A stretch of 64,000 nucleotides of DNA from an uncultured Gammaproteobacteria bacterium (GTDB taxonomy: Bacteria; Patescibacteriota; Microgenomatia; Levybacterales; GWA1-39-11): positions 71,525-135,524 of the forward strand of contig CAYVAJ010000001.1 of assembly GCA_964448725.1 (NCBI GenBank), given 5' to 3'. How positions within the stretch are numbered: position 1 is the stretch's first letter; each line of letters opens with the position of its first letter. Made by a program: the position numbers and the translations under genes. This document shows, piece after piece, positions 38,934-55,998 of the stretch. The notes beneath the pieces are model-generated. The model searched no databases. It was not told the DNA's origin and saw only the letters and a list, made by a program, of their open reading frames with translations.

Positions 38934-38984
38934 ATAATAAGCATACTTGAAAACACTTACAGTAATCAACTAAGATTTAAGTAT

Positions 38985-41801
38985 ATGCCAGACATAATCC
39001 CAGAGCAGCAACCTGTTCAATCTTCATCAAGCGGAGTTTCTACTATGGAGAATCGTTTCCGTGCTGTTACATTAAAGCGAAATGATTTTATTAAGGAAAT
39101 AGATACGGGATTGATAATAAACGATAAAAATAAAGAGGTGGGGAGAAAAAATGAACATGTAACGTTTAGTGAGGATCTTCGCCAGCAATACTCAACATTT
39201 CTCGATAATTATGTTCGCAACCTTATTGAAATTCAGAACAAGGACAGAACGTTTTTGGAGACAAAAAGTAGAATACAAGACAAATTAATGCTTAATCTTT
39301 TATCTTCAGAAGAAAAGGACCCCCAAGGAAGAGCAATTACTACTCAAGAGGGATGGTCTCTAAGAAAGGTAGATGAGGCGAAAATCCAACAGTTTTTAGA
39401 AACTCAACAGGGATGGACGCTTGCAAATATGGCGCTTGAACAATATACCTCAATGATGATGTTTGCACTCTCACTCGAAGCATCTATTGTGCCTGAAGGA
39501 GATAGGGATAAGTTATTAAGAAATTTTAAGATTGATAATGGTATCAATCAAGGAGCGTTCTGGAAATGGGCAGCAAACAGACGTCCCCCGATCTATCCTG
39601 AAAAACCTGGTTTTTTTAAGAGAGGTAAAAGGACGGAAATTAAGCCTAACCCTGACGTACTGTTGGCGATGAAAAATAACCCTGAAGAAGCAAAGTTTAT
39701 TTGGGAGCTTACTGGAATTGATGTTGATGATTTTACCATTGATCCAGTAACTGGAGAGGTTATAGCAAATGCCGGTGTTAAGATAACTGACGCAGTTGAG
39801 GAGAAACAAAAAAGTATTATTGGAAATTTGAAGTCAAGACAGCAATTTTACGAGTCTTTAGGAATACCTTCAAAACAGTTGGACGCAATGGATTCTCAAT
39901 TTATATATAGCTATGTAAATGGAAGCTCTGAAGAAATTCCAACCCATGTACACCAAAGGATTATTGACCGTTTCAAACCAAACAGAACAATAGTTGATGC
40001 AGCAGGATTACACCCCGGTGAACCTGGTTTTGATCCTAACACCGTTAATGTAGAAGAAGTATTGCAAAAATACTTAAAGGTAAAACGAGATATATTTGTG
40101 CGGCTTGCTCAGGAAGCTGTTGCGCGGCAAGTACAAGGTACTGAAGACTTAAGTAAATCACTTACTGTAATTCGTACTGCGTTGGAAGATGTAAGAAAGG
40201 GTAGAGAGGGAACTATTGCACAGCGAAGAAATAAGGAAGCACAGGAAAGAATTGGGGTACTAGAAAAAGAAAAGCATGAGATTAGTGAAAAGAGAAGACC
40301 GTTGGAAGAGTTCGCTGAAAAACAAAAAGCAGTTCAGCAAACAGTCAAAGAACTTTCCGAATCATATGGTGTAAATATCCCTGCAGGAAGCGATTTTGAG
40401 ACAACGGTAACTACTGAACTTAATACTATTCAAAACCAGATTGAAGGAGTGACTCCTCCCGGTGGCGGAGCACGTGCAGGGGGTATTGAGCAGCAAATTG
40501 AGCAAGAAAGGCTTGCAATGCAAAATTGGATCGATACTCAAACAAATGCAGCTATTGCAGCACGTGTTGGTGCGTTGGGAGGAAGGGGAAGTCTACCTCA
40601 AAGTGAGATAACTAATATTGTAACTGGATATAGGGAGACTGCTGAGAGTTCATATGGAGCTCGTATTCAACGGTTAGAGGCGCAAAAAAGACAACTAGAA
40701 GAACGGCGGAATAATCTTAATACTCTTTTGTCTCGAAATAGAAACGCAGTTAGAGAAGAACGAGAATCTGAACAAAAAATTGTTAACCAAGCTCCAAAGG
40801 AGCTTGATGCTATGAGAGCATCGTATGAATTAGTTGTAAATTCTGCCGGGGCAACAATTACCGCAGACATGCTTGAAAACAGGAATGTTGACCAATTAAT
40901 TCCGCTATTAACTGCAGCGCCATATAATCAACCGAATACGACTCCTGAACAACAAGCTGCACTGCGTGAATTAGTTATCAGAGCAAAAACTGAACTGAAG
41001 GGAGAAAGACAAGAAGGATTTGAGCCAAGTCCAGCAAACCAGACACAAGAGTACAACGATATTATTAATCAAGCAGGTGCAACTATTACATCAAATGATC
41101 TTCTTTCTCTCTCAGATCAAGAGATTGAAAATAGGCTTACGCAACCTCCATATAATTTTCCTGCTGCAGGTATTCATGATCGTATAAATCTTGCCCGTGC
41201 AGAAGCACAAAAGAAACTGCGAATTCGTTATGCGGTACTGCTTGATGAACGGGAATCAGACCTAGGCAACCAAATCAAACAATTGGAAGATAAAATGAAA
41301 TCACAGACAAGCTTTGATAGAGAAGAGAAAATTCTACAAACAGCAGAAAGAGCGATAAGCAGGCAAGAAGAGGTATTTACTAATGCGATTGATATTGTTA
41401 GTGACATTGGTCGGTATACAAAGGTTGATCATGTGACAAATGCCGATACTACATACTCAGAGTCAGAAAGAGCAGCAGGTTATTCTAAAGGGTATTATGA
41501 ACTAATGGATTATCTTTTTTCTTATCAAGAAAACCCCGATATATCTGATAGAAATGAGTATTTTCAGGCCATTCAAGAATCACTTCCTCCTGAAAAACTT
41601 GCTGTAATTCTTAATGAGCGATTAAATCTTCGGCTAATTCCTGTTCCGCCTGGTTTTGTTGGTCCACTAGGAGCAAATATGATCAATCTTGAAAATGTAT
41701 TTCAACGAATGAGTAGAAAGAAATTATCTCCACGTGACATGCAAAGGACATTGTCAGATGTTATTATAAGATTGAAAGACGAAGCGATAGCAATAGTATG
41801 A
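38985..41801 (+). CDS. large hypothetical coiled-coil protein (938 aa)
   Basis: Long ORF with consistent codon usage and heptad-like E/K/Q-rich segments; no recognised catalytic motif. Confidence 0.5.
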   Translation: MPDIIPEQQPVQSSSSGVSTMENRFRAVTLKRNDFIKEIDTGLIINDKNKEVGRKNEHVTFSEDLRQQYSTFLDNYVRNLIEIQNKDRTFLETKSRIQDKLMLNLLSSEEKDPQGRAITTQEGWSLRKVDEAKIQQFLETQQGWTLANMALEQYTSMMMFALSLEASIVPEGDRDKLLRNFKIDNGINQGAFWKWAANRRPPIYPEKPGFFKRGKRTEIKPNPDVLLAMKNNPEEAKFIWELTGIDVDDFTIDPVTGEVIANAGVKITDAVEEKQKSIIGNLKSRQQFYESLGIPSKQLDAMDSQFIYSYVNGSSEEIPTHVHQRIIDRFKPNRTIVDAAGLHPGEPGFDPNTVNVEEVLQKYLKVKRDIFVRLAQEAVARQVQGTEDLSKSLTVIRTALEDVRKGREGTIAQRRNKEAQERIGVLEKEKHEISEKRRPLEEFAEKQKAVQQTVKELSESYGVNIPAGSDFETTVTTELNTIQNQIEGVTPPGGGARAGGIEQQIEQERLAMQNWIDTQTNAAIAARVGALGGRGSLPQSEITNIVTGYRETAESSYGARIQRLEAQKRQLEERRNNLNTLLSRNRNAVREERESEQKIVNQAPKELDAMRASYELVVNSAGATITADMLENRNVDQLIPLLTAAPYNQPNTTPEQQAALRELVIRAKTELKGERQEGFEPSPANQTQEYNDIINQAGATITSNDLLSLSDQEIENRLTQPPYNFPAAGIHDRINLARAEAQKKLRIRYAVLLDERESDLGNQIKQLEDKMKSQTSFDREEKILQTAERAISRQEEVFTNAIDIVSDIGRYTKVDHVTNADTTYSESERAAGYSKGYYELMDYLFSYQENPDISDRNEYFQAIQESLPPEKLAVILNERLNLRLIPVPPGFVGPLGANMINLENVFQRMSRKKLSPRDMQRTLSDVIIRLKDEAIAIV

Positions 41802-42160
41802 AATTAGGGACAAAGGATTTAATAAAAATATTACCGTTTGATGATCAGTTCAAGAAAGATATACTTGAACGATATGATTTTCTTGATGAAGATCAGAAGT
41901 TCAATATTCAAAATGTGGTCTGGGATACGTATAACCTCTTATTTGATATGAAACTGCAGGAAAATATTGACCTTGCACTTCAGATGGCTGCTCAAAATCA
42001 AGAAAAGTTGGATAAAGATTTTTATGATCGTGTTAAAGAGGTGACAGAGCAAGAGTTTTCGAGTGGAAGTTTTAAGTCAGTTGAACAAATGGATTTAGCG
42101 CAAACTAGAGAAAAGCTTCAAGAAATTTTACAAAAGATCGAAAGTGATGATTCCAATTAA
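41798..42160 (+). CDS. hypothetical acidic protein (120 aa), translationally coupled (ATGA overlap) to the 938-aa gene
   Basis: 4-nt overlap with the upstream stop; no recognised domain. Confidence 0.45.
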   Translation: MKLGTKDLIKILPFDDQFKKDILERYDFLDEDQKFNIQNVVWDTYNLLFDMKLQENIDLALQMAAQNQEKLDKDFYDRVKEVTEQEFSSGSFKSVEQMDLAQTREKLQEILQKIESDDSN

Positions 42161-42168
42161 CTGTTTCA

Positions 42169-42870
42169 ATGCATATACTCTTACTCATTGCTGAGTTAAT
42201 TTTCCTTTTTATAACCTCACGTTTTATTTCCAAATACCTTTTCATGCTTTTTTATAATCTCTTTAGAAAAGAGAGTGTTGCTGCGCGAGTAGTTGCATTT
42301 ATCTTTTTCCCAGGTACTCTTATCCACGAGCTTGCGCATTTTCTGATGGCAAAAACTTTATTCGTTCGTACAGGAAATATAGAATTGATGCCTGAAATAC
42401 AAGGAGATACTCTAAAATTAGGAAGCGTTCAAATTGCAAAAACTGATATTTTGAGACGTTTTTTAATTGGTGTTGCACCTCTTTTGATCGGGTCTATTCT
42501 TCTTATCATTATAATTTACTCATTTTTTAATTTTTTCCCTTTAACGAGCTTTGAATGGAGCTGGCAATATGTTTTATCAGTTCTGGTCGTGTTGTATGGA
42601 ATTTTTGTGATAACAAATACCATGTTTTCAAGTAAAAAAGATATGGAAGGAGCATTAGGCTTATTTATACTGTTAGTATTTTCTCTTTTAGTAATTTTTG
42701 TAGCTGGGAGAGGAGAGTGGGTAGTGAGAGTCATGGAAAATATTATTAACAATCCAACTATTCAGCAATATGTCAATAAAATAACTATATTCTTGTTTTT
42801 CCCAGTCATTATTAACGGTGTCGTGCTTCTCACCTACAATGGATTGAGGAAATTGAGAAAAAGGAATTAA
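42169..42870 (+). CDS. polytopic membrane protein with intramembrane HExxH motif (putative zincin-like membrane peptidase)
   Basis: FFPGTLIHELAHFLMAK within a hydrophobic helix; 5-6 predicted TM helices. Confidence 0.4.
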   Translation: MHILLLIAELIFLFITSRFISKYLFMLFYNLFRKESVAARVVAFIFFPGTLIHELAHFLMAKTLFVRTGNIELMPEIQGDTLKLGSVQIAKTDILRRFLIGVAPLLIGSILLIIIIYSFFNFFPLTSFEWSWQYVLSVLVVLYGIFVITNTMFSSKKDMEGALGLFILLVFSLLVIFVAGRGEWVVRVMENIINNPTIQQYVNKITIFLFFPVIINGVVLLTYNGLRKLRKRN

Positions 42871-43220
42871 AAACCTGGATCAATTATTATTCCTCCATCT
42901 GGATTTCCGCCAACTACATTTTGGTTAACACCTAATATTTCAAAAAAACCATTAAAAAATGCAAATGATAAGAGTATAAAAATAAGACCTATTATTGCAA
43001 ATGTTAATGTTTTTTTTGCAGAGCTGATTGCTTCAGGATCTCCTTGAGATGTAACAAATCTAATACCTGATATGATAATAAAATATAGAGCAACAATTGA
43101 TGACAGTATTATTGCAGCATTAATTAGATTTGAAAAAAGAGGCCAGATACAGCGAAGTGTCGCTACTTGTGCTTCACCCCCCTCTAAGCATCCTTCCCAT
43201 GGTCGTGTAAACAAATCCAT
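42867..43220 (-). CDS. T4SS pilin-like protein (CPR-type VirB2/TrbC-like), paralog 1
   Basis: Shared C-terminal motif IISGIRFVTSQGDPEAISSAKKTLTFAIIGLIFILLSF. Its stop overlaps the stop of the convergent gene (TTAA). Confidence 0.5.
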   Translation of the reverse strand: MDLFTRPWEGCLEGGEAQVATLRCIWPLFSNLINAAIILSSIVALYFIIISGIRFVTSQGDPEAISSAKKTLTFAIIGLIFILLSFAFFNGFFEILGVNQNVVGGNPDGGIIIDPGF

Positions 43221-43284
43221 AAAATAATTATAGTAACTTGCTCGGAAAAAATCTATTTATAATCGAAAGGTAAAAGGATAAAAA

Positions 43285-43719
43285 TTAATCAGTAATTTCA
43301 ACTTGATTTGGTATTAACTTTGGAATTTCAAGTGTATTAATTGATCCTAGCCCAAATATTTCAAGCACAAAATTTAAAATAACATACGCAAGAATCACAA
43401 GGATAAGGCCAATAATAGCAGCAATAATTTGTCCTCGTGCCTCAGAAACTTTTTCTTTATCTCCGCCTGAGACAATCCATTTAATACCACCCCAAATAAG
43501 CCAAATGAGTGCAGCAAGTATTGCAATAAAGAAAAGAGCATTGATTGCAAATCGTACTACTGTATTAATATCCAAATCTATCCCAAACATACCAGGTGGG
43601 CGTAGGTCTACCTTCTCATTACCATCAATTACTGGTTGAGCAAATGCAGGGACTACTGTTTGAAGGTAGACTGCGCTGGAAAGAGTAAGTGCGCCTAGTG
43701 GTCTGAATAATTTTTTCAT
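43285..43719 (-). CDS. T4SS pilin-like protein, paralog 2 (with signal peptide)
   Basis: MKKLFRPLGALTLSSAVYLQTVVPAFAQ signal peptide, then WGGIKWIVSGGDKEKVSEARGQIIAAIIGLILVILAY. Confidence 0.6.
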   Translation of the reverse strand: MKKLFRPLGALTLSSAVYLQTVVPAFAQPVIDGNEKVDLRPPGMFGIDLDINTVVRFAINALFFIAILAALIWLIWGGIKWIVSGGDKEKVSEARGQIIAAIIGLILVILAYVILNFVLEIFGLGSINTLEIPKLIPNQVEITD

Positions 43720-43810
43720 GTCTATATTTATTAGAGCAGTTTTTAAAATGCTTGTCAATAGAGTAATTTATTATCTGTTAGGAAAGGTTAACTCTTAAGT
43801 AATTAAATCC

Positions 43811-44182
43811 CTAGTCAGTACGTGTAAACGGGAATATGCTAATGCCCATAATGCTCCCGACTGTGCTTACTATAACAAACGAGAGAAGGATAACAATAAT
43901 TCCAATGATCGCATAGATGATTGTTTTACGGGCTTTATCAAGTTTTTCTTTGTCGCCACCAGATGTGATCCAGATAATGCCTCCCCTAATGAGGAAAACT
44001 AATGTAACAATTATACCGATAAAGAAAAGAGCGGATATGCCAAAGTTAATAATATCACTTAGCCCAAGCTGATCTTCTAGACTCAAAGGATCTTGAATTG
44101 GTTGATCCTGTCCTGGTAATTTGAGGGCGAGTAATTTTTCTTTCATACTATCTAGTAAAGCCTGGATAGAAAAAAATGTCAA
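43811..44182 (-). CDS. T4SS pilin-like protein, paralog 3
   Basis: IRGGIIWITSGGDKEKLDKARKTIIYAIIGIIVILLSF. TTG start at 44182, or ATG at 44146. Confidence 0.55.
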   Translation of the reverse strand: MTFFSIQALLDSMKEKLLALKLPGQDQPIQDPLSLEDQLGLSDIINFGISALFFIGIIVTLVFLIRGGIIWITSGGDKEKLDKARKTIIYAIIGIIVILLSFVIVSTVGSIMGISIFPFTRTD

Positions 44183-44214
44183 TATAGATGTATGAAAATG
44201 ATAGATAATATTTG

Positions 44215-44237
44215 ACGCCTGCGATTAGCAGGCGTCT
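44215..44237 (-). terminator. perfect hairpin downstream of the lipoprotein gene
   Basis: GACGCCTGCgattaGCAGGCGTC: 9-bp stem, 5-nt loop. The flanking U-run is weak. Confidence 0.35.
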
Positions 44238-44242
44238 GAAAG

Positions 44243-44809
44243 TTACCGATCTGGTAGTGCTTGAAAAGAGGCAAGCATCCTGGGAATTATCCCATTTTCA
44301 GTATATTTCTCAATACTGCCTGGTATTCCTTGGAATCTTACCTCGACTGCTCCATGCGTGCCTTGAGGATCTGTTCCTGTAATTATTGCGATTAAGAACT
44401 CATCCCCTTCGCTTGTTATCCCTTCTAGGATCTGAATATCTCCGTTTTGTTCTTCTCGGATAACATCAATGCGGCTAGAACTTGGACTTCTGAGATAGTA
44501 TGCTATATAACAGTCTCTCCAATCTTTTAAAGTTCCACCATCTGCTTCAATGTCATCAAGCTTACAATGACTTGTAGTTGCAGAGCCGAATCCAACCCTA
44601 AAGACCGATTTGTCACTGTCTGGAGGGATGATGTATGTATATCGACCTTGAGATTCCTCTTTCCAGGATAGAGGCCTATCAAGGGTTACCCTATAGAACA
44701 TCATTGTATACCACTCTTCCTTGGAGGTACTGTTATTCACAGCGCCTTCTGCGTTACTACCACACGCAGCAAGTAGAAGTATGGACAGAACAGCAAAAAA
44801 CCGTACCAT
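44243..44809 (-). CDS. lipoprotein, hypothetical
   Basis: MVRFFAVLSILLLAACGSN lipobox. Own promoter TTGACT-16-TATACT, a ~100-nt leader and a good SD (AAGGAGA). GC looks higher than neighbouring genes. Confidence 0.55.
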   Translation of the reverse strand: MVRFFAVLSILLLAACGSNAEGAVNNSTSKEEWYTMMFYRVTLDRPLSWKEESQGRYTYIIPPDSDKSVFRVGFGSATTSHCKLDDIEADGGTLKDWRDCYIAYYLRSPSSSRIDVIREEQNGDIQILEGITSEGDEFLIAIITGTDPQGTHGAVEVRFQGIPGSIEKYTENGIIPRMLASFQALPDR

Positions 44810-44959
44810 CGTCTGTCTCCTTTCTGAAGAAGTCGTACAATGTGGCGAAAGGTACAACCGACACGGTGTTAACGAGCAAGATAGGAAGAATTTGTTGCCT
44901 CTCTTCCAAATCTTTGTGATAGTATAACAGAAATCTACAACAAGTCAATACTATAGGTT

Positions 44960-46675
44960 TTATCTTGAGAAGCCTGGAAGAGCTAGAATATCGACACCGA
45001 TTATTTCCAGTATAGAGATAGAGAGTATAAGGAAAATAAGTCCAGTTACAGCAGATATAAGAATTTCACGTGCATGACCAATCTTTTCTTTATCTCCTCG
45101 TGAAGTCATAAGGATATATCCTGAATATATAGCGAAGATAAAAGCTGCTACAGTAGCTACACCTAGTAACCATTTTCCCAATGTTGCAATAAATTCTATT
45201 GGTTTTGTGCCAAATGGCCCAATTGCAGTAGCAAATGAAGCACAACGATAAAATTGGGTAGGATCATCAGTTCCCTTATCATTTATATCTACCCATTGAT
45301 TACATGGAAGTGGGCTGTTTTTATCCTCGTCTAGTGCATATATTAACTCTGATTGATTGGGATCAGCTTCTATCTCGTTCGTTTTTATATACGCATTTAG
45401 TACTCCTTGACTATTTTCTCCATGCTCAAGTACGACAAGAATTGGAATATGATAGTATGTAAATCCACCCTGACAATTATCCGTCCTCCAGAAAGAAGTG
45501 TCATTTATCTGTTCATTAATTTTTAGTAGGTAATTTCCGGCCAGAAGCGGTTGTCCATTTGGCTCATTACGTGAAATAATTGTTGAGTTATTATTGAAGT
45601 GGGTCATGAGGGAACCTGTTACTTGGTCTCCAGTTAAGTCACCGCAAAACTCATTTTTGTAATTATTTCCTATACCCTCAAGAACAATTTGAAAATTATT
45701 TACTTTGTTGCCTCCTACTTTAATTTTTTGGCTCAGTCCTATTATTAAAGGATTCTGAGCAGGAATATTTTCGGAAGCATTTTTTTGTTCTTGTCCGTTA
45801 ATAAACAACTTTCCTTTACTAACTGATAATTGTGTTCCAGTAAATATGTTGACTGTAGGATAATTTCTTCTTACATAAAATTCAGCTACTTGAATTGGTG
45901 AGCTCGTGTCTTTATCAAATAAGCTAACCCTATAGATACTTCCTTCATGAAAATAATCTTTTTTTGTATCACAATTTTCTCCAGAAGGCTCTTTTACGGC
46001 ATCAGGTCCATCCCCACACAATGCCGGTAAATCAAGGATATTATTTGTAGTGGACTTTGTTTTTTTCTTTTGACTGCGCTCACATTTTTCTATATCTGAT
46101 TCAAAGCAAACTTCATATTCGCTACTAGAAAGTCCAAAAAAACTTACTGAAACTTCCGGAGTGTATCCATTAATTTCTTCTGGAGGAGGGAGAATTTCAT
46201 ATCCAAAATCGGCAGGATTTGTTGATCTTGCTGGAAGAGGAGTAGGATTGACAATATCTGATGAAGTACTTGGTAATACTTGGATACTGGCTTTACAACC
46301 TTCATGTGTTGTTACTCCACCTCGTTGATTTATAGAGCCTTCTGATACATATACAAAAAGATCATAGCTCCCTGGTCCCAATTGCTCAGAAAATTCATAA
46401 TTAGATTGATTTGTGTACTCATTCTCGAAGTCGACATTTTTACCTTTTATTGTTAATGGGAATGTTGGAAGCTGATTTGTCCCTCTTCCGATATTGGAGC
46501 TTTGGGGTAAAATTGAGATATTATAAGGTTTTCCAAATTCAACTTGACTAGGAGCCTGAATTGTGCAAGTATGATCTGCATCTGTATGAGGAATATGATA
46601 AAAAAGGAAAAAGCTAGTAACTACTAGAAATATGGGTATAATAATAAAAGTTATTTTAGAATATACACGCCTCAT
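44960..46675 (-). CDS. large (571 aa) protein with N-terminal TM, ~480-aa extracellular region and C-terminal T4SS-pilin-like domain (paralog 4)
   Basis: C-terminal YSGYILMTSRGDKEKIGHAREILISAVTGLIFLILSI matches the motif of the three small paralogs. Confidence 0.6.
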   Translation of the reverse strand: MRRVYSKITFIIIPIFLVVTSFFLFYHIPHTDADHTCTIQAPSQVEFGKPYNISILPQSSNIGRGTNQLPTFPLTIKGKNVDFENEYTNQSNYEFSEQLGPGSYDLFVYVSEGSINQRGGVTTHEGCKASIQVLPSTSSDIVNPTPLPARSTNPADFGYEILPPPEEINGYTPEVSVSFFGLSSSEYEVCFESDIEKCERSQKKKTKSTTNNILDLPALCGDGPDAVKEPSGENCDTKKDYFHEGSIYRVSLFDKDTSSPIQVAEFYVRRNYPTVNIFTGTQLSVSKGKLFINGQEQKNASENIPAQNPLIIGLSQKIKVGGNKVNNFQIVLEGIGNNYKNEFCGDLTGDQVTGSLMTHFNNNSTIISRNEPNGQPLLAGNYLLKINEQINDTSFWRTDNCQGGFTYYHIPILVVLEHGENSQGVLNAYIKTNEIEADPNQSELIYALDEDKNSPLPCNQWVDINDKGTDDPTQFYRCASFATAIGPFGTKPIEFIATLGKWLLGVATVAAFIFAIYSGYILMTSRGDKEKIGHAREILISAVTGLIFLILSISILEIIGVDILALPGFSR

Positions 46676-46722: not shown

Positions 46723-48033
46723 TTATTCAGCAAATTTTATACCTTTTCCTTTCACTGTGAGGATATATTGAGGATTATTTGGATCTGATTCTATTTTTTT
46801 GCGTAGCCTATAGACTATCTGATCGAGTGCTTGGTCTGTTACCCCTGCTTGAGTTTTTGAATCAGTCCAAACAGCATTAATAATCTCTTCTTTCTCAGAG
46901 GTCCTTCCTTTATGTATCAATAGATGCTTAAGGAGACGGAATTCAGATGGTGTAAGCGTATCGGTAATATTGACAGACCCTTTGTAAATTTCATTTTGTT
47001 CTTCTTGAAAAGAAAACGGTTCTTTTTCCTCTTTTATAGTTGCTATATATGCTTCAAAAAGTGGAATAGTGATTTCTCCATCGGCAATAAGTCCGACAAG
47101 TTCGAGAAATTTCAATTCATCGTTATGATTATGTAAATGTTTTACTCCGTGTTGTTCCTCAGGTGTGAGATAGTTCCAGATTTCCGTAAGTGCACCACGC
47201 ATTTGTCGGTGTCCAAGTAAATATTTCTCAAAATCCTGAGGAGATTCATTCTCTGAAAGAATGGCTTCATAAGCAATTTTAACGAGCTTGCCATGGCCGC
47301 CAGTGAGTTGTATGAGCTTCTCTCGTGCTTTTTCGTTTTTCTTTCCAGCTACTGTCTCAATATAATTGAGTCTGAAATCAGGCTCATTAGGATGTGCGAT
47401 TTGCATAAATACTGAGTTTCCGATTAAAAATTCATAGAATTCTGAAAGAGTAGAGAGGTCGATAAGTAAATCTATCGGACGTGAGAGTGCAAAAATACAC
47501 GCAAATTTGTATTTTGCCCTGTTCCGTAGTATTTTCAGATTGACAAAAAATTGCTCAGTAAGATCTTGTGTGTATTGATCAAGTCTGTCTATGAGGAATA
47601 TAACAGACATGCCTTTTTCAAGCGCAAGATAATCTATTGATTTTTTTAGGGCTTGAAAGAGGATCAGTTCGTCATTGAACTCAAGTGCCTCTTTTAAAAA
47701 ACTATTGACCTGAGTACTTTCAGTAATCATTCCTCGCTCACTTAACGAGTATGCAAGAGAAATGAGTATAAATTTTGTAACATCTGATAATGGACGATTG
47801 CGGACTTCTGAAAAATCCATATATACAAAATGGTATTTTTCCTGAGCATCTTTTAAATGAAATTCTCGTACTTTACGGTTATAGGCAAGTAGCCTGAGAA
47901 GGCGACTTTTACCTACACCAGGAAGGCCAAGAATTTGGCACGACGCACCTTTTGTAATAAAGCCAATGGTTTTATTGATCTCTTCATGCAAGGAATTTTC
48001 AGGATAGAGTGATTCAAAATATTTAGGGTCCAT
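46723..48033 (-). CDS. P-loop ATPase (AAA/NACHT-like) fused to a C-terminal OmpR/PhoB-type winged-helix DNA-binding domain
   Basis: Walker A ILGLPGVGKSRLLRLLA and Walker B VIFLIDRLDQ. C-terminus TDQALDQIVYRLRKKIESDPNNPQYILTVKGKGIKF matches trans_reg_C. Confidence 0.6.
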   Translation of the reverse strand: MDPKYFESLYPENSLHEEINKTIGFITKGASCQILGLPGVGKSRLLRLLAYNRKVREFHLKDAQEKYHFVYMDFSEVRNRPLSDVTKFILISLAYSLSERGMITESTQVNSFLKEALEFNDELILFQALKKSIDYLALEKGMSVIFLIDRLDQYTQDLTEQFFVNLKILRNRAKYKFACIFALSRPIDLLIDLSTLSEFYEFLIGNSVFMQIAHPNEPDFRLNYIETVAGKKNEKAREKLIQLTGGHGKLVKIAYEAILSENESPQDFEKYLLGHRQMRGALTEIWNYLTPEEQHGVKHLHNHNDELKFLELVGLIADGEITIPLFEAYIATIKEEKEPFSFQEEQNEIYKGSVNITDTLTPSEFRLLKHLLIHKGRTSEKEEIINAVWTDSKTQAGVTDQALDQIVYRLRKKIESDPNNPQYILTVKGKGIKFAE

Positions 48034-48094
48034 AAGTTAATTTGAAGTTTTCAATTTTTAATTTTAAACAAAACTTAAATCATTAAATTTGAAA

Positions 48095-48451
48095 TTATTT
48101 AGTATTAATTGCTATTTTTGAAAAAATAAGAGTAAGTTCTTGAGCTTCTTTCCAATGTATATTGCATTGCTTAGTTAGTTCTGGAACTGCTCTGATAAGT
48201 ATACGTAACCAGTATTTTGTCTCTTTTGCCTCCTTTTTACAAATAAATATTTTATTTTTAAAATCCTTCTTGCTACTTGCCCCGTTTGCTTCACAATAAT
48301 TTGCTCCTATACTTGTCCCAGATCGTACTAGTTGATTAATAATTGGCGTTACAATTACATTCTTTGGTGCTATTTTACATAAATCTATAATATTTTCAGC
48401 AAAACAGGCTGTTCTTTCTTCTAAGTCATAATTATTTGATATTTTACTCAT
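48095..48451 (-). CDS. four-helix-bundle protein (23S rRNA IVS protein / Avd-like family)
   Basis: VRSGTSIGANYCEANGASSKKDFKNKIFICKKEAKETKYWLRI is the family signature. Confidence 0.75.
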   Translation of the reverse strand: MSKISNNYDLEERTACFAENIIDLCKIAPKNVIVTPIINQLVRSGTSIGANYCEANGASSKKDFKNKIFICKKEAKETKYWLRILIRAVPELTKQCNIHWKEAQELTLIFSKIAINTK

Positions 48452-48577
48452 TGAAAATTCATTTCAAATATTAAATTTCAAATTAAAAATTTATCTATAT
48501 TCTACCTCATTTTTATAAGGAAGTTGTGAAGATTGTATCAAGTATGAATATTAGACACATCTTACAATAGCAATACT

Positions 48578-51500
48578 ATGAAAGATCGATTGACACGTGT
48601 GGGTAAATCAGGCCATACTAATAATATGGAAGACAGAGGGGAAAGTCCTGTTTTAACAGAAGTAGGAAAGGCTTTAAAAGAAGCTGATGCATTTGCAGAT
48701 AAGTTCGCAAATGCTATGAAAGAACATGTACATAAAGAAGCAAAACAGCGTGCAGAGGCTGAAGCTGAAAAGAAACGCCAAAAAGATTCAGAAGAACGAA
48801 GAAAAGAAGAAGATAGAATCAGAAATGAGCTTAAAAACACAAAACATCCAGAAAGAGCAGTATCTCCAGAAGATCAAGAAAGAGAATTCAATGATCTAGT
48901 CTCTCAATTACCCAAAAAAGAGCAAGCTGCTTATCGCCAATTAATGAATGGTATGGCAGATACAACACAAAGATCAAGTTTTTTAAATTCAATTCGTGCA
49001 TTAGTAAAAGGTGAAGCATCAGGAGATGATGTTCAGGCACCAGAAGACACGCTCAAGATGAAAATTGAAGATGTAGTAGGAAATAGCTCTCTTGAGAGAT
49101 TCTTTACAAAGAGGGTAACTCCAAAAGTAGAGGAGGTAAGTAAGAAAATTTTACAACATGTAGAAGAACAAGGTGCTGATCAAGAACAGATTATTACATT
49201 ACAACGTCAAATAAAATCCGCTGTAGAGAAGGATACTTTTGAGATTAAACAGAAAGCAAAAAAAGGAGAGTGGGATAAAATACAAAAACGTCTTTCTCAA
49301 ATGCTGCAAGACCTTGAGCAAAGAGAAAAAGAATTAGTACAAGAGACAAAAGACTCTCAATCAAACGATTTAGAAACTAAAAAACACGAGAAATTGTTAC
49401 CAGAGCAAGAAAAATCTGTTGAGGTTCAGCATAAGATACAAGAGGCAACTAATCGCTTTAAAGATGGTGAAGAGAAACTTACCCAAGGTTTGCAAAATAC
49501 AGTATCAAAGTCAAAAGATCCAATAAATAGAATTTCAGAGCAAAATGTGCTGAAGAATAAAACTCCAGAAACGGTCGTTACAGAGGCAAAAGAAAGATTT
49601 AAAAATGCAGTAGGTCAAAGTGATGAGGACCGCGTATCAAAGGGAAAGCTGGAAGTATTAAGACAAGAGGTTGAGAAGAATGCAATGTTATCACCTGAAG
49701 ATCGTATTAGAAAAGCAACAGAGATTTTACGGCAAGCAAAATTACTAAATAGAGAATTACATGAAAAAGAAGCAAATGCAATTCTTGATGCACATAAAGT
49801 CGGAGAAGGAGAGACTGGACTTGATGGGAGGAAAGCAGAAATTGAGAATTTTACTTTAAGTCAGTTGCTGAGAAAAGGAAGAATTTTACGTGGTGAAGGT
49901 GGATTTGATGATTCACAGATTCGTTTGCTTATGGAACATGGGATTACAGGACCAAGAGCTTCTTCAGTGATAGAAGATCGAGCTGTTATTTCTGGAACAG
50001 AAGCTTCTTCTGCAAGTAACAGTCACACTCCAACAGCAGATGCAGTAGAAGAATATATACGTTCAATTTCAAATTCAAAAGTAGATGCGGAAGAAAAATA
50101 TACACTGTCAGTTCCAAATAAAGACGAAAAGGGATATTGGGATCCTGATACTTTACAAGATCAGAATGCTCAACTGGTAAAAGAAGTAGTGGGTAAAACG
50201 GTGCTTGATGATGTTGAAGAATGGGAAGAAGATCTGGAAACAGACAATATAAGTGAATCATATTCAGGTTACTTACATGCATCTCTTGCTGATACAGATA
50301 CCTTTAGTATCAAAAGATTTAATAACTCAATTACAAGCGAACTCTTTCGACTGCATACACTCTCTCAGAATCTTCCAATTGATATGCAACAAAATGTAGA
50401 AGACGTGATTTCAAAGCTTGGTACAAAACTCAATTCCCTAAGTATGTATCAAAATCAGCATGAGCAAATTGAACAAGAACTTTCACATTTGAAAGACGAA
50501 TATTGGATGACTGACGGATCACGTGAGGCAAAACAAAAGATTCAAGATGCAGAAAAAAGACTAAAAGAGTTGGAAACAAGATTTAAATCTAATGTCCGTC
50601 CACTTATTAATGAACTGGAGAATGTAAGTAATCAAGCACATCAACAAGTAACGCAGCGAGAGAACAGTGGTAGTGGGGATGAAAGAAATCTTGATTCCGG
50701 TAGACCAGTTGTTCCTCCTGGTGGTGGAGTTGGCCGAGGAGGGGGCGGTGGTGGAGGCCCTGAAGGAGGAGAAAATGGTGGACATTTTGGGGGTAGAAGG
50801 GAAAGAAGAATACGTGGCGGGGGTGGTGAGGCACCACCACCTCCGCCAGAGCTCGGATTACGGGGACGAGGAGAGGGAGATGAGGCTGAGGAAGATCCTC
50901 TTGGTCGATCAGTTAGATCAATTGAAGATCTAGGGCATTTTATGGAACTTGTTACGGCAGAATTTAGAGGAAAAATTATGGCCTCTCTTTATCGGGGTGA
51001 AGATGGAAGTATTATTACAGAAGAAGACTTATTAAGCGATGTAACAGATCTCAATCAACAAGAAGAAATGAAATCAAAAAATAGACTTTATGCTTTTAAA
51101 GTTGGGCAAGGAGAATATGCAATGGATTATCTAGATACAAAAGTGCCTAATAATTATAAAGTGCCAGATGATGAACGTGGAAATAGAGTGTTGATGTTAA
51201 CTGCTGAGGAAATAAAACAAATTGATTCTCGAATGATTGATCCTCAAACTGGAAGACCATGGGCGAGACATGGTGGACAAAATGCTAAAGATTATTGGGA
51301 AGCCGTTCGGATTGTACGACCTGATCAATTTATGAATTGGGTCAGAAGCTATTGGACTCTGATTCATGGTGATGATCCTGATAATCCAGTTAACTTTTTT
51401 CAAGAGATCATTGTAAATCATCCTGATCAAAGAGGTGCAGTTAATGTAGGTGTTATGCATAAAAATGCAGGGACTTATTTACGCAGCAGATTTTTAACAG

Positions 51501-53776
51501 ATCCTTCCACTGGTGAGTTACGAGTATTTAATCAGTTAAGAAATCAGATTATTAATGAGGTCTGGGTACCGTCTGGTGAACGTAATAAAGAAGTACTTTA
51601 TAAAAAAATCATGCACGCAGATGAGGAATTGCCAAAAGTGATGCGTGATCAAATCACTGCAGATAATTTGGCTGCAAAAATCTCCGCAAATGGGAAGAAT
51701 ACACTAGCAATGTTTTTCACTCTGCCAGAACATTTCCAGGACGATTTTGATTGGAGAACAGGTAAGGAAAAAACACAATCTGAACGAGCAGAGGATATTA
51801 AATTTGGAGCGGGGATACTGTTAGCATATGAAATGTACTATAACATCAGTGATATAGAAGGTATGAAGCGATTGATTGGAAATAATGCCTCATTCTTTAC
51901 TCGGGATGCCATAACAAGAGCAGTCTTAGAAGTAGCAGGTGAAGAAATGCCTGAAAAGCTTGATAAATCCCACTATGAATTTGCCACTCAATATTTAATT
52001 CAACTAAAAGATCCTGGAGCAGGGACAGTAATTGATGCAAGCTTATATGATGAAAAAGGAAAAGTGGATGAATCGAACAAAAAAAATCTTAATAAGTGGC
52101 TACAATTTATGAATCCTTATTATCCAGTTCAAAAAGATGTCAAGATGCTTGGTGTAATTCGAAAAGTAGTTGAGAATCAATTGCAGGAGATCATTGGAAT
52201 TGAAAAAGGAGCATCTGGATCAGAGCTTGCAGAGCTTCATGCATATATGCGTACCTTCCATGATGGTGTTGCAGCGCGCCACGATGTACGAATGGGCAAT
52301 CGTAATTCACAAACAAAATATGAATTTGTTGGTGCGCCAGGAGGTTATCAAGATAAACAGTTCGGTCGAGATAGAGCTGGAAATTTATATAATAAAGGAC
52401 TACTTTGGAGAACTACAGTTGGTATGTTACATGCTATGCCTACAAGAAACGGTGAAGCCGTACAAGATATATTGCATCATGCAATATCTATACAGATGAA
52501 TGCATTGCACCCATACAGAGATTTGCTGGATAGGATTAAGCGGGGAGAAGTTCCTGATTCAAGGTATGAAGAAATTAAAGAACAGATCGCAAGACGGGAA
52601 GATTTTGAAGATGATCCAGAAGCAAATGCACTGCTTGCTCAAATAAGAAAAATTGATAAAGATTATAAAAAATTGAAAGAGGACGGATTTATAAAAGATG
52701 CACAGGCAAAGAGCCATGCACGATACCGACTCATAAATGAAACACTTGAATTGCATTTACGTAAGAAGTATGAACCGTTGGCAACTGCATGGGAAACATA
52801 TAACAAAAATATTCCTAAAACAAATTCTGATTTTAATTCAGTTCTGGGAAGACTTGAATTTGATGAAGCTCAGTATACGCAGTATGGAGGAATGCATTAC
52901 TCAAATAGCACGGGACTTTTTCATATGGAAATGGAATCACAAGATCTTCCTCTTGATAAATTGAGCGGAAGAGATTATCAGGGTAGACTATTCTTTAAAA
53001 CAGAAGAATTTGGAGGATGGCTTGAGGGAATGGAAAAACGAATGAGGTACACAATTGAAACATGGCCATTACCACTGGGAGCAACTGAAAGAAGGTTAGT
53101 AAATCCTCGTACCTCAGAGCCTCCTAAGTTTGTTGAGATGCCGCTAGTTGAGTCAATATTTGGATCTTATGATTATACGGGTGCGCGGAATGGTGGAGTA
53201 ATGGAAATGGCGCAGCGTATGATTAATCGTAAGTTGAAAGATCCTATTAATTTTACTGATGGAAAAGGAAATATTGTAACGGTTATTCCAAAAGAAGAAA
53301 ATGGACAAATCGAACGAGACAAACTTGGAAATCCTATTATGATTCCTGATTATGAGTCTCCGCAGGCATTAGAACGTAGAGAAGCACTTCGTAAAATTGT
53401 GGGATATGTTGATTATGATAAAGATGAAAATGGAAGAATTATTGGTATAAATGATATTGTAAAACCTTTAGTAAATGATCCAGCAAGTTTTTTTACGAAA
53501 GCATATGTAAAAGTACGTATTGCAAATTTTATCCTAGCTCATACAGACAAATACTCACCATATGAGAAATGGACGATAAGACAACGTGAAGATTTCTTTC
53601 ATTCATTAATGTTGTCAAGTTATTTTTCAGAGATAGACATTGATGATATCAGAGAATTCTCAGATAACAAATTTTGGAAAAATTTCAGAAGAGAGGCATT
53701 GAGAGAAACCGGGTTAGGTGCAATGCAAGGAATCTTAGATGCTTTTAAGACCTTTTTTAAAGGGGCTGTGTCTTAA
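48578..53776 (+). CDS. giant hypothetical protein (1732 aa): K/E-rich coiled-coil N-terminus, Gly/Arg/Pro-rich disordered linker, large uncharacterised C-terminal region
   Basis: Uninterrupted 5.2-kb ORF. GGGVGRGGGGGGGPEGGENGG...APPPPPE linker at 50690-50900. No recognisable catalytic motif. Confidence 0.7.
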   Translation: MKDRLTRVGKSGHTNNMEDRGESPVLTEVGKALKEADAFADKFANAMKEHVHKEAKQRAEAEAEKKRQKDSEERRKEEDRIRNELKNTKHPERAVSPEDQEREFNDLVSQLPKKEQAAYRQLMNGMADTTQRSSFLNSIRALVKGEASGDDVQAPEDTLKMKIEDVVGNSSLERFFTKRVTPKVEEVSKKILQHVEEQGADQEQIITLQRQIKSAVEKDTFEIKQKAKKGEWDKIQKRLSQMLQDLEQREKELVQETKDSQSNDLETKKHEKLLPEQEKSVEVQHKIQEATNRFKDGEEKLTQGLQNTVSKSKDPINRISEQNVLKNKTPETVVTEAKERFKNAVGQSDEDRVSKGKLEVLRQEVEKNAMLSPEDRIRKATEILRQAKLLNRELHEKEANAILDAHKVGEGETGLDGRKAEIENFTLSQLLRKGRILRGEGGFDDSQIRLLMEHGITGPRASSVIEDRAVISGTEASSASNSHTPTADAVEEYIRSISNSKVDAEEKYTLSVPNKDEKGYWDPDTLQDQNAQLVKEVVGKTVLDDVEEWEEDLETDNISESYSGYLHASLADTDTFSIKRFNNSITSELFRLHTLSQNLPIDMQQNVEDVISKLGTKLNSLSMYQNQHEQIEQELSHLKDEYWMTDGSREAKQKIQDAEKRLKELETRFKSNVRPLINELENVSNQAHQQVTQRENSGSGDERNLDSGRPVVPPGGGVGRGGGGGGGPEGGENGGHFGGRRERRIRGGGGEAPPPPPELGLRGRGEGDEAEEDPLGRSVRSIEDLGHFMELVTAEFRGKIMASLYRGEDGSIITEEDLLSDVTDLNQQEEMKSKNRLYAFKVGQGEYAMDYLDTKVPNNYKVPDDERGNRVLMLTAEEIKQIDSRMIDPQTGRPWARHGGQNAKDYWEAVRIVRPDQFMNWVRSYWTLIHGDDPDNPVNFFQEIIVNHPDQRGAVNVGVMHKNAGTYLRSRFLTDPSTGELRVFNQLRNQIINEVWVPSGERNKEVLYKKIMHADEELPKVMRDQITADNLAAKISANGKNTLAMFFTLPEHFQDDFDWRTGKEKTQSERAEDIKFGAGILLAYEMYYNISDIEGMKRLIGNNASFFTRDAITRAVLEVAGEEMPEKLDKSHYEFATQYLIQLKDPGAGTVIDASLYDEKGKVDESNKKNLNKWLQFMNPYYPVQKDVKMLGVIRKVVENQLQEIIGIEKGASGSELAELHAYMRTFHDGVAARHDVRMGNRNSQTKYEFVGAPGGYQDKQFGRDRAGNLYNKGLLWRTTVGMLHAMPTRNGEAVQDILHHAISIQMNALHPYRDLLDRIKRGEVPDSRYEEIKEQIARREDFEDDPEANALLAQIRKIDKDYKKLKEDGFIKDAQAKSHARYRLINETLELHLRKKYEPLATAWETYNKNIPKTNSDFNSVLGRLEFDEAQYTQYGGMHYSNSTGLFHMEMESQDLPLDKLSGRDYQGRLFFKTEEFGGWLEGMEKRMRYTIETWPLPLGATERRLVNPRTSEPPKFVEMPLVESIFGSYDYTGARNGGVMEMAQRMINRKLKDPINFTDGKGNIVTVIPKEENGQIERDKLGNPIMIPDYESPQALERREALRKIVGYVDYDKDENGRIIGINDIVKPLVNDPASFFTKAYVKVRIANFILAHTDKYSPYEKWTIRQREDFFHSLMLSSYFSEIDIDDIREFSDNKFWKNFRREALRETGLGAMQGILDAFKTFFKGAVS

Positions 53777-53815
53777 TGTGGCAGTATGGATATTATTGCC
53801 TGTGTCTTGATTGAT

Positions 53816-55465
53816 TTAACTTCTGGGACTAGGATTTCGGAAGAGAAAGTTTCTGGCTCTTGACGTCCATTGTCCGCGTATTATATTTCCATTATTATCT
53901 CTTTGAATACGTTGATCCATACGCCGTCTTATAGGATCAGCTATAAACCCTTTACTTTCTCCAGTTCGAGGATCTCGTTCCCATGCTCGTGATGTAATAG
54001 GACTGACAGATTTGCTTACTACACTTGAACCCATGCCGAAAGCCTGTCCAATTGCTGCTTGATATTTTACTGTAGGAGCATGTAGAGCATCTTTTACGAT
54101 GTTTACAACCTCAGGAGTCATGAGAATAATTGCCAGACCAATAAGAGCACCAAAATGCGTTGGATTGATAGGATTACCGATAAGCGGCGGTGTGAAGTAA
54201 TTTGTACCACCCTGGCTGAATACTTGAACGAAAACAGACCCAAGCAAGAACATAAAAAGAGTAACAGGAAAGACTGCTATATATGAAAAAATATGTTTAA
54301 ACCAGCTTCCTGCACTGAGAGGAGAACCAGGTATGAGGCTTCCTGCGATCCAAATAGGAGCAAGCACGGTATCAATAAGAATGAAAAGATATGCTTTAAG
54401 TAATAATATCCATAATCTAAAAAGAGAGAAAAGAATTGCGACCATAATTATAAAAAAGGCAATAAATGAACCGATGTAACCCATAATGTTATTGCCAAAT
54501 AAGCCTCCAAGAGCAAGTCCTAAAGATGATCCTATAACGCCTCCTAAAATATTTCCTCCTACGGGTACTACTGATCCTAATCCGGCTCCTATAACTCCGA
54601 GAACAATAGTTGCAATTGTTTGACCAGCATTCCCTTCAAATACAGTTGCAATAATATCACCTATACTTGAAGCAGAATGTTTTGCTATACTACCAATTCC
54701 GCCTAATCCTCCAGCGGCACCAAATGGAGTAGATCCTTGGAGATTGGTGGGGTTAAGTCCTGCTATGTGGACTCCAGGTATTCCTGCAATTATTTCATAA
54801 AACATGTACATAATAAGATACATTAAATCAATCAGAAAACCTGAAATAGCAAAAGAGAATGTTACAAGTACTAAAACAATGATCGCTCGGGGAATAGCAT
54901 TTTGAATAGTCATGACAGTACGAGGATCTACTTTAAAGCGGAAAATAATACCAAATCCGATGAGCATAAAGATAATGACAAATAGTACATAAACAATATT
55001 CCGGAAAGCTACCCAGGTATTTAAGAGTGGATTGAGGCTGTTAAAGCCTATTCCAGCTTCTTGAGCATAGGTGCCTTTCGCAATACCAAAATTGGACGCA
55101 GTATATTTGATATAGCTGTCAGAATTAATCGGAATATTAAAGCTACCAGCAATCATTGCACTCATTACTCCGATTGCACCGCCTCCATTTTCTACGTAAC
55201 CAATTTTGTTAGTTTCGGGGTCTACTCCTAGACATTTGCCAGTAGGGTTAATCGGGTCTATGCCAGCAAGATGACAGGTCATGGCTGCCATGATTTCAAT
55301 GAGGACAATTTGCGTGCGTGTTCCCATATCTAAAGGAACATCTGCATTTGTCCGTGCAGGGATTTGTGGAGGAGGCTGTGTTGCAGGTGTCTGAGCAAAT
55401 GCAGAGTATGCGGTAAAATTCAGAAAAATAGCGACGAAGAATAGGACAGAAAACAGGCGTTTCAT
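53816..55465 (-). CDS. polytopic Gly-rich membrane protein with signal peptide (VirB6/TrbL-like candidate)
   Basis: MKRLFSVLFFVAIFLNFTAYSAFAQ signal peptide; 8 or more predicted TM helices with G-rich loops. Confidence 0.45.
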   Translation of the reverse strand: MKRLFSVLFFVAIFLNFTAYSAFAQTPATQPPPQIPARTNADVPLDMGTRTQIVLIEIMAAMTCHLAGIDPINPTGKCLGVDPETNKIGYVENGGGAIGVMSAMIAGSFNIPINSDSYIKYTASNFGIAKGTYAQEAGIGFNSLNPLLNTWVAFRNIVYVLFVIIFMLIGFGIIFRFKVDPRTVMTIQNAIPRAIIVLVLVTFSFAISGFLIDLMYLIMYMFYEIIAGIPGVHIAGLNPTNLQGSTPFGAAGGLGGIGSIAKHSASSIGDIIATVFEGNAGQTIATIVLGVIGAGLGSVVPVGGNILGGVIGSSLGLALGGLFGNNIMGYIGSFIAFFIIMVAILFSLFRLWILLLKAYLFILIDTVLAPIWIAGSLIPGSPLSAGSWFKHIFSYIAVFPVTLFMFLLGSVFVQVFSQGGTNYFTPPLIGNPINPTHFGALIGLAIILMTPEVVNIVKDALHAPTVKYQAAIGQAFGMGSSVVSKSVSPITSRAWERDPRTGESKGFIADPIRRRMDQRIQRDNNGNIIRGQWTSRARNFLFRNPSPRS

Positions 55466-55529
55466 AGGTAATTTTAGTATGGCGTAAAGTTTGACAAAAA
55501 GTCAAACAAAGCGTTTAGTAAATAAGTGT

Positions 55530-55895
55530 TTAGCGTTTAGATTTAAGCTTAAGAATAATTGAATGGAGCATTTTTGACGTTTCATCTATAAGACCTTCTA
55601 GTTTTTTTGTGTCATTTGGAGTAATAAATACAAGCCTCTTAGCAATGATTAAATGTGTCTCTAATTCTAAAGCAGATCCATATGCTATTGAGTAAAACTG
55701 ATGATATTCTTTGACAGATTTTCTGCCATATCCTTCAGCAATATTGGCTGGGATTGATATTGCTGCTCTTCGCATTTGACTTACTAAATTATATAATTCT
55801 GTTTTCGGAAATCTACTTGTTACCTTATATACTTCTTCAACTAGTTCAATTGCTCTTTGCCATACAATCAGTTCTTTATATGTGTTTATTTGCAT
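55530..55895 (-). CDS. four-helix-bundle protein (23S rRNA IVS protein / Avd-like family), paralog
   Basis: MRRAAISIPANIAEGYGRKSVKEYHQFYSIAYGSALELETHL is the family signature. Confidence 0.75.
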   Translation of the reverse strand: MQINTYKELIVWQRAIELVEEVYKVTSRFPKTELYNLVSQMRRAAISIPANIAEGYGRKSVKEYHQFYSIAYGSALELETHLIIAKRLVFITPNDTKKLEGLIDETSKMLHSIILKLKSKR

Positions 55896-55998
55896 TGTAT
55901 TACTAAACGCTAGGTTCTTATTTTTACTATACGCTTTGCATAGATTGTTGACAACAATCTATGCTCTCGGTATGATTAGGCAAAGCGATGCAAGGAGT

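Follow-up and report, generated by a model that had tools for sequence, protein, structure and literature searches.

A conserved VirB6-like/giant protein module and two intervening-sequence-like cassettes in the type IV secretion locus of Levybacteria

The DNA described here, a 64-kb stretch from a member of the Levybacteria (hereafter the window, to whose positions all coordinates refer), carries a type IV secretion system (T4SS) locus, and within it lies a 7.8-kb region of four genes: the four-helix-bundle gene hb1 (48095–48451, minus strand), a gene encoding a giant protein of 1732 residues (48578–53776, plus strand), a gene encoding a polytopic membrane protein of 549 residues (53816–55465, minus strand), and a second four-helix-bundle gene, hb2 (55530–55895, minus strand). 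An initial annotation of the window, made from its sequence and open reading frames (ORFs), had placed the four genes at these same positions and had read the region as a segment enclosed by a pair of paralogous Avd-like genes and holding an orphan giant protein. The genes are as annotated, and the region is a conserved VirB6-like/giant module of the Levybacteria T4SS locus together with two intervening-sequence-like cassettes, rather than an Avd-bounded orphan segment.

The VirB6-like/giant gene pair

The 549-residue protein was found to be Gly-rich and polytopic and to carry a signal peptide, just as initially described. The Sec-type signal peptide comprises residues 1–24, with cleavage between MKRLFSVLFFVAIFLNFTAYSAFA and QT, and the protein has about 6–8 hydrophobic helices, a Gly-rich center, and a TrbL-like helical core at residues ~280–470. 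Hydropathy segments at residues 147–229, 282–380, 389–419, and 436–458 span the same regions as the long helices of an AlphaFold2 model. In the family alignment, Cys64 and Cys78, both located in the region past the signal peptide, are invariant, and the sequence of this region (~120 residues, with its Cys pair) suggests that it is an extracytoplasmic domain. A database search returned 572 homologues, with those named by source labeled Levybacteria, Patescibacteria, or Parcubacteria, and a scan of species-representative genomes found a relative encoded in at least 450 of them. Several of the close homologues P0007–P0016 are 700–770 residues long, presumably with C-terminal extensions.

Matches to the TrbL/VirB6 family (PF04610) were obtained for three of 30 aligned family members. 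P0081 and P0115, which are 43–46% identical to the 549-residue protein, score 32 bits over profile positions 42–209 of 215, against a gathering cut-off of 25.9 bits, and P0093, 45% identical over the full length, scores 24.9 bits against the same cut-off. In a Foldseek search of the PDB with the AlphaFold2 model, the highest-probability matches were to TrwI/VirB6 of R388 (8rtd_L, 8rt9_F, and 7o3v_J; probability 0.41–0.77, E 0.25–0.42, template modeling (TM) score 0.27–0.33). Furthermore, the protein is the sole large polytopic membrane protein in the T4SS neighborhood. Thus, because two close homologues reach the PF04610 threshold, TrwI ranks first by probability, though weakly, the protein is the sole large polytopic one, and the gene belongs to a T4SS locus, it is very probably VirB6/TrbL-like, as had been proposed at the outset. 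Three results weigh against this assignment. The 549-residue protein itself has no Pfam TrbL match even at E ≤ 1, so its membership in PF04610 is by transitivity only, the homologues matching and the window sequence not; hhalign of the family profile against a single VirB6 sequence, that of Agrobacterium pTiC58, gave a probability of 1.3%; and even the best of the TrwI/VirB6 fold matches (probability 0.72–0.77, E 0.25–0.33, TM score 0.33) are non-significant and were obtained with a model whose predicted local distance difference test (pLDDT) score is 68. A PDB sequence-profile search with the family gave no match, and tblastn matches to VirB6 on plasmids were almost all from Rhizobiaceae.

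Like known VirB6/TrbL proteins, the 549-residue protein is a polytopic helical protein encoded with VirB3/PrgI-like, VirB4-like, and VirB2-like pilin genes. Unlike them, it has a Sec signal, the putative extracytoplasmic domain with its Cys pair, and a long Gly-rich central segment, and its gene lies outside the T4SS operon, 18 kb from virB4 and adjoining nrdR, with no similarity to Agrobacterium VirB6 detected. VirB6 homologues have been reported to be scarce in Microgenomatia, a scarcity put down to extreme divergence (PMC12102498). The VirB6-like family is likely the missing Microgenomatia component, probably overlooked in that study.

The giant gene is convergent with the virB6-like gene, with the two stop codons 39 bp apart. 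Its product lacks a signal peptide, transmembrane segments, and Cys residues, and charged residues abound in the N-terminal half. The initial annotation had noted both a Gly/Arg/Pro linker and the lack of any recognizable motif, and both observations hold: a low-complexity linker rich in these residues occupies residues ~700–765 (50675–50872, plus strand; G+P of 0.39 in residues 701–800), and the protein matches nothing in Pfam, NCBIfam, or PHROG, with no informative Pfam domain in 40 family members and no match of the family profile to PDB sequences. Neither a Walker A motif nor any conserved ATPase, protease, or nuclease motif was found in the giant protein. Identification as a T4SS ATPase, coupling protein, or relaxase was considered and found no support, given the missing Walker A motif and a single, non-conserved HVH at residue 50.

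Contrary to the initial claim, the giant protein is nevertheless no orphan. An exhaustive HMMER search with residues 771–1732 retrieved 103 cluster representatives within E ≤ 1e-3, of which 60 reach E ≤ 1e-10; most have 800–1770 residues, and the core lies at about residues 913–1300. By comparison, word-indexed searches with the full protein and with its family alignment gave only 1 and 7 proteins, respectively, because low-complexity words saturated the candidate list. No paralogue of the giant protein was found in the window. Cys makes up 0.078% of residues in 185 family members, versus 0.68% in the cytoplasmic proteins of the window, a nine-fold depletion.

The pairing of the two genes was examined further after 80 more loci had been retrieved with the VirB6-like profile. 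In all 77 loci with enough sequence beside the virB6-like gene, a large ORF on the opposite strand begins no more than ~80 bp from the virB6-like stop codon, tail-to-tail; it encodes 863–1608 residues in 76 loci and a 327-residue fragment in one. The ORFs in this slot fall into two sets, with 39 matching the hidden Markov model (HMM) of the giant family (type 1, to which the window protein belongs) and the 38 others being designated type 2. Comparison of the type 1 and type 2 bodies by hhalign gave a probability of 4%, and an iterated HMM drew in no type 2 protein. The types are partly interleaved on a tree of VirB6-like similarity, the nearest neighbor being of the same type in 59 of 77 cases. 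The adjacency is kept where the upstream synteny with DUF5667 and NrdR genes is lost, and down to ~35% identity of the VirB6-like protein; giant and virB6-like homologues were also found on common contigs.

Gene order was read gene by gene in four further genomes, and runs NrdR, DUF5667, virB6-like, then, on the opposite strand, the giant gene, followed by a four-helix-bundle gene or none, the regulator, and the pilins. The sole one of the four reaching far enough, L005, continues after the pilins with PrgI, a 211-residue protein, and VirB4, and prgI/virB4 follow the pilins in every related locus that is long enough. The co-occurrence with the pilin cluster that the initial annotation had proposed looking for in related genomes is seen in all four genomes so read.

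At the N-terminus of the giant proteins, a family motif, MKDRLTRVGKSGHTNNMEDRGESP in the window protein (48578–48652, plus strand; consensus M.E..ELT.....YA..G.IFMPE), was recognized on visual inspection in the majority of proteins of both types, with a loose regular expression matching 119 of 185. An HMM of the motif gave 58 matches among all locus and window ORFs, every one in an ORF of at least 700 residues, by which the motif was ruled out as a signal common to neighboring proteins. A conserved N-terminal module (…AILDAHKVGEGETGLDGRKAEIENFTLSQLLRKGRILRGEGGFDDSQIRLLMEHGITG; 49760–49957, plus strand) aligns by BLASTP with the positional ortholog in L002, the closest relative of the window, at E 2e-14, and a comparable module is shared by the L005 protein, of type 2, and the type 1 protein P0211 (E 5e-13). 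The last ~30 residues of the giant protein form a Gly-rich amphipathic tail ending …GILDAFKTFFKGAVS; in general, type 1 C-termini are Gly-rich and amphipathic (…G..KG…FFKG..K) and type 2 C-termini are hydrophobic and transmembrane-like, most of them ending in Lys.

The C-terminal body of the giant protein (residues 771–1732, 962 residues; 50888–53773, plus strand) was modeled by AlphaFold2 with the family alignment as an alpha/beta multidomain structure, with a pLDDT of 87.4 and a predicted TM score (pTM) of 0.89. Foldseek comparison of this model gave a best E of 0.21 (probability 0.06) against the PDB and a best E of 0.028 (probability 0.2, TM score 0.11) against BFVD. The best BFVD match, a "large polyvalent protein associated domain", was rejected as an identification on that E value and TM score. 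The model suggests that the body is likely a new fold. Structure prediction, which the initial annotation had recommended for both large proteins, gave TrwI/VirB6 as the highest-probability, though non-significant, match for the 549-residue protein, and no fold match for the giant body.

Divergence was measured between the window and L002. Identities are 91.5% for NrdJ, 85% for SmpB, and 82% for the regulator, and 55.5% for the VirB6-like protein, 55% for the hb1 product, and 41.5% for the large pilin, whereas the giant protein shows 27% identity over only 482 residues. Among the neighbors checked, the only one diverging more than the giant protein is a 204-residue ORF at 44243–44857, which has no BLASTP alignment with L002.

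Four-helix-bundle cassettes

Membership of the hb1 and hb2 products in the four-helix-bundle family, as initially annotated, is supported by matches to PF05635 and TIGR02436 at E 7e-15 and 3e-20 for hb1 and at E 9e-41 and 8e-39 for hb2, which also passes NF008911 (151 bits). They are the only four-helix-bundle genes in the window. Their description as paralogues was not borne out, the two being related by family-level similarity only (phmmer E 1.6e-3, with no BLASTP match). Each ORF sits within inverted repeats: the hb1 cassette (~450 nt; 48037–48486, minus strand) has arms at 48037–48062 and 48461–48486 around a 118-residue ORF, and the hb2 cassette (~430 nt; 55496–55925, minus strand) has arms at 55496–55540 and 55900–55925 around a 121-residue ORF, with a repeat core of GCGTTTAGTAA and TTACTAAACGC. 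The former lies directly upstream of the regulator gene and the latter directly upstream of the virB6-like gene, each co-oriented with the gene that follows. In the predicted RNA fold of hb2, a long interrupted stem closes around the ORF in both the minimum free energy (MFE) and centroid structures, with a z-score of −2.86 and none of 100 shuffles as stable.

Related loci differ in their four-helix-bundle genes: L005 and L006 lack them, L002 and L004 have a single one at the hb1 position, and others have several, with four in L032. The L002 ortholog of hb1 occupies the matching position. Across these loci, no copy of the cassettes was counted in the 560 kb upstream of virB6-like genes, whereas the 649 kb on their T4SS side contain 44–47. 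Of 44 cassettes, 42 share the orientation of the T4SS genes. The gene that directly follows a cassette is typically the regulator (16 of 57 loci), a pilin gene (12), or prgI (5). The best flank-to-flank complementarity has a median of 12 for the cassettes, while the median is 7 both for 158 small pilin genes taken as controls and for shuffled flanks (p ~6e-19), and a score of at least 10 was reached by 34 of 45 cassettes versus 7 of 158 control genes. The arms are often built from tandem units of 6–7 nt.

Thus described, hb1 and hb2 have the anatomy of S23p-type intervening sequences (IVSs). The IVS of Coxiella 23S rRNA is 428 nt long; its S23p ORF is preceded by heptamer repeats, and RNase III cuts the 28-bp stem at its termini (PMC4990558). 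The cassettes share with such IVSs, known from 23S rRNA of Coxiella and Leptospira, the ORF family, the size, the terminal inverted repeats, and the short tandem repeats. They differ in their location, neither being in an rRNA gene and both lying between protein-coding genes of the T4SS locus; in that their stems are predicted, whereas RNase III cutting is known for Coxiella; and in that the hb1-type copy occupies a recurrent, apparently inherited position. The cassettes may be selfish passengers, with a stem that may serve as an RNase III processing site in T4SS transcripts. Two points weigh against this account: the hb1 RNA fold, which has a 10-bp closing stem in the MFE and centroid structures, is not stabler than shuffles (z +1.5), and the enrichment of cassettes was measured against the 10-kb flank across virB6 only, and not genome-wide. 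No description of a concentration of S23p-type cassettes in the T4SS locus was found in the literature searched.

A reading of the two genes as Avd, the accessory protein family of diversity-generating retroelements (DGRs; bAvd, PF22296/NF033474), did not hold. The likeness consists in the four-helix-bundle fold family and weak hb2 matches (phrog_3206, E 9e-8). Unlike in a DGR, scores fall below the cut-offs (PF22296, 30.5 vs. 40; NF033474, 23.6 vs. 80), no reverse transcriptase was found in the 39 of 65 window ORFs of at least 100 residues that were scanned with Pfam, and no long direct repeat of the template/variable type is present in 46.5–57.5 kb. A DGR Avd identity was accordingly rejected for both.

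Surrounding locus and window

The T4SS operon at 29.7–37.8 kb encodes an M23 peptidase, a VirB4-like ATPase (33206–35629), a 207-residue protein without a Pfam match (35724–36347, minus strand), and a PrgI/VirB3-like protein (36405–37763). The 207-residue protein, located between the VirB4-like and PrgI-like genes and with the 211-residue protein of L005 in the equivalent slot, fits a TrsD-like component by position and size; TrsD-like proteins are the most abundant T4SS-associated proteins in Patescibacteria (PMC12102498). dnaA and dnaN (24485–27126) lie directly beside the operon, and the locus is therefore placed at the replication origin, as has been reported for T4SS genes of Microgenomatia (PMC12102498).

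Four T4SS_pilin (PF18895) genes occupy 42867–46675, three of them above the curated cut-off and one just under it. Between this array and the giant gene lies the gene for the regulator (46723–48033, minus strand), a 436-residue protein with an AAA-type ATPase and an OmpR/PhoB-type winged-helix domain (Pfam Trans_reg_C, E 2e-19), which is also found downstream of virB6-like in 57 related loci and is a candidate regulator of the pilin/T4SS genes. The opposite flank of the virB6-like gene carries NrdR, NrdJ, tmRNA, and SmpB genes. An Rfam scan of the window gave tmRNA as its sole match, with no rRNA gene. Consensus scans placed a hairpin, a weak terminator-like site, between the convergent giant and virB6-like genes (53780–53800, plus strand), in numbers not above shuffles. 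They also placed a promoter-like TTGTCA-17-TATAGT (55926–55954, minus strand), which could drive hb2 and virB6-like, and a divergent promoter-like TTGACA-17-TATGAT (55948–55976, plus strand) facing the DUF5667 gene, with a site total likewise not above shuffles.

Patescibacteria T4SSs have been described as akin to the monoderm MPF-FATA class, with pilin arrays, usually without a relaxase or a nearby coupling protein, and often near dnaA (PMC12102498); the system is essential in Southlakia epibionticum (PMC10633639). The window locus resembles them in having PrgI-like, TrsD-sized, and VirB4-like genes in a row, a peptidase, and a divergent VirB2-like pilin array, in the adjacency of dnaA/dnaN, and in that no relaxase or coupling protein was found nearby. 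It differs in the AAA/winged-helix regulator and the four-helix-bundle cassettes embedded in it.

A block at 38040–42870, encoding a 309-residue protein with a C-terminal transmembrane segment, a 938-residue Cys-free protein without a Pfam domain, a 120-residue protein, and a 233-residue protein with six transmembrane segments, separates the PrgI-like gene from the pilin array. Since prgI directly follows the pilins in L005, this block must, at least in part, be an insertion or a lineage-specific addition. Elsewhere in the window, a giant 3301-residue protein (4964–14869, plus strand) has SdrD B-like, CBM6/CBM35, CarboxypepD_reg, SpaA, polysaccharide lyase, and dockerin domains and probably acts at the surface, binding or degrading polysaccharide. 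A protein with an OLD-like TOPRIM domain (129–1091, plus strand) is a possible defense nuclease. Many contigs with the Levybacteria-type locus (L009, L014–L018, and others) are titled "uncultured Gammaproteobacteria bacterium", one is titled Bacteriovorax and one Eisenbacteria; these are probably mislabeled records of metagenome-assembled genomes.

Possible roles of the module

On balance, the region is best explained as a conserved module of a chromosomal, dnaA-proximal T4SS locus, in which a VirB6-like protein is combined with a giant protein that would be a T4SS substrate or an exposed partner, and with S23p-type cassettes. The 549-residue protein would be the divergent VirB6/TrbL subunit of this lineage, the polytopic membrane part of the translocation channel. 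The slot beside it is occupied by giants with a common N-terminal motif, a variable body of ~900 residues of at least two types, and a C-terminal tail, amphipathic or hydrophobic and ending in Lys; such a giant would be recognized through its conserved termini, either the N-terminal motif or the C-terminal tail, and would most likely act with the T4SS at the interface with a host cell, whether translocated as a substrate or effector or exposed by the machine as one of its components. The cassettes would have inserted just upstream of genes of the locus (the regulator and virB6), with their terminal inverted repeats closing a stem around the ORF.

Invariant pairing with virB6-like genes, extreme divergence, and the lack of a Sec signal make the giant protein a plausible T4SS cargo or surface component. 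The pair lies in a T4SS locus and the giants combine shared termini with variable bodies that diverge very fast, and it is from these features that we infer a role at the host interface. Several points count against that role. The giant gene is a convergent transcription unit of its own, outside the T4SS operon; a rough alignment underlies the non-homology of the bodies of the two types; several cytoplasmic proteins of the window are Cys-free like the giant; the C-terminal tail of the giant is equally compatible with a secretion signal and with the membrane anchor of a cytoplasmic protein; and no coupling protein, which would bear on substrate recruitment, was found in the window ORFs scanned.

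The giants resemble polymorphic effector and toxin architectures in their common N-terminal motif and module, alternative bodies, single fixed locus, and very fast divergence. Unlike in those architectures, what varies is a multidomain body of ~900 residues rather than a small toxin domain; it is not followed by an immunity-like gene, and Pfam and NCBIfam revealed no known toxin or trafficking domain. A more far-reaching proposal, offered here tentatively, is that the giants are what the Patescibacteria T4SS transports, or the parts with which it contacts the host, forming a polymorphic family, encoded at one fixed position beside virB6, in which the N-terminal motif serves for recognition, bodies of ~900 residues and new fold can be exchanged, and the C-terminal tail seeks the membrane, and that the cassettes have spread into the mRNAs of the locus and act there as RNase III processing modules, which would be the first IVS role outside rRNA.

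Somewhat doubtful, and still the best placed of the alternatives, is that the giant protein is not secreted and is instead a cytoplasmic part of the T4SS, tethered to the membrane at its C-terminus, serving as a scaffold or adaptor beside VirB6 that supplies the hydrophilic domains of extended VirB6 proteins in trans or replaces the coupling protein. Saccharibacteria have extended VirB6-like proteins of 998 and 1088 residues, which are essential and carry ARM-like hydrophilic C-terminal domains (PMC10633639), whereas the window has a short VirB6-like protein and a separate giant gene. With this would agree the lack of a signal peptide and of internal transmembrane segments, the C-termini that resemble tail anchors or membrane-targeting helices, the constant position beside virB6-like, and the lack of a coupling protein among the ORFs scanned. 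However, core parts of a machine are usually conserved, and the giant retains 27% identity over a third of its length where the regulator retains 82%; moreover, its bodies are of at least two types without detectable relationship. Rate and body replacement both argue against a core machine part. Nor does the giant have a Walker A or other ATPase motif, and no similarity to ARM repeats or VirB6 extensions was detected.

It is unlikely that the giant protein is unconnected with the T4SS, being for example a cytoskeletal or cell-envelope protein whose adjacency is inherited synteny within one order. Its separate, convergent transcription and the synteny of the upstream NrdR/NrdJ neighbors in a subclade would suit such a view, and, because all 86 loci belong to a single lineage (Levybacteria or close relatives), the adjacencies do not count as independent events. 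The adjacency, however, outlasts the upstream synteny, divergence of the VirB6-like protein to ~35% identity, and replacement of the body type, and the giant evolves at a rate like that of the pilins and unlike that of housekeeping genes.

Finally, a segment of 7.8 kb, mobile or accessory in nature, with paralogous, Avd-like, nucleic-acid-binding accessory genes as its two borders, along the lines of the initial annotation, is highly improbable and already contradicted: the window's only two four-helix-bundle genes do flank the region on the same strand and hb2 does score weakly as Avd, yet hb1 and hb2 are barely similar, no shared terminal or other long repeat links their ends, composition does not shift (GC of 0.33–0.39 across the stretch, the same as in the remainder of the window, ~0.37 overall), no integrase, transposase, or reverse transcriptase was found in the Pfam-scanned ORFs, the virB6–giant pair and its flanks keep the same order in relatives with zero, one, or more four-helix-bundle genes, and the hb2 position is unique to the window genome, with no such gene there in 82 related loci.

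The reading of the region as a VirB6-like/giant module of the T4SS locus, carrying S23p-type cassettes, has consequences for each of its parts. The VirB6-like protein is a new member of a known family, whereas no description of the giant family, of its constant pairing with virB6, or of its apparently new fold was found in the literature searched. In the sole Patescibacteria species tested, epibiotic growth depends on the T4SS, and no substrate of the system has so far been proposed (PMC10633639, PMC11665869, PMC12857230). Levybacteria, members of the class Microgenomatia in which VirB6 was reported scarce, thereby gain a strong VirB6 candidate, and S23p-type IVS cassettes are seen to occur also between protein-coding genes, concentrated in a T4SS locus, which bears on the nature of such elements. 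Overall, an undescribed, fast-evolving giant family, always beside the VirB6 candidate and with a confidently predicted structure that has no known relatives, provides a testable candidate for the cargo or the host-contacting part of the T4SS in these bacteria.

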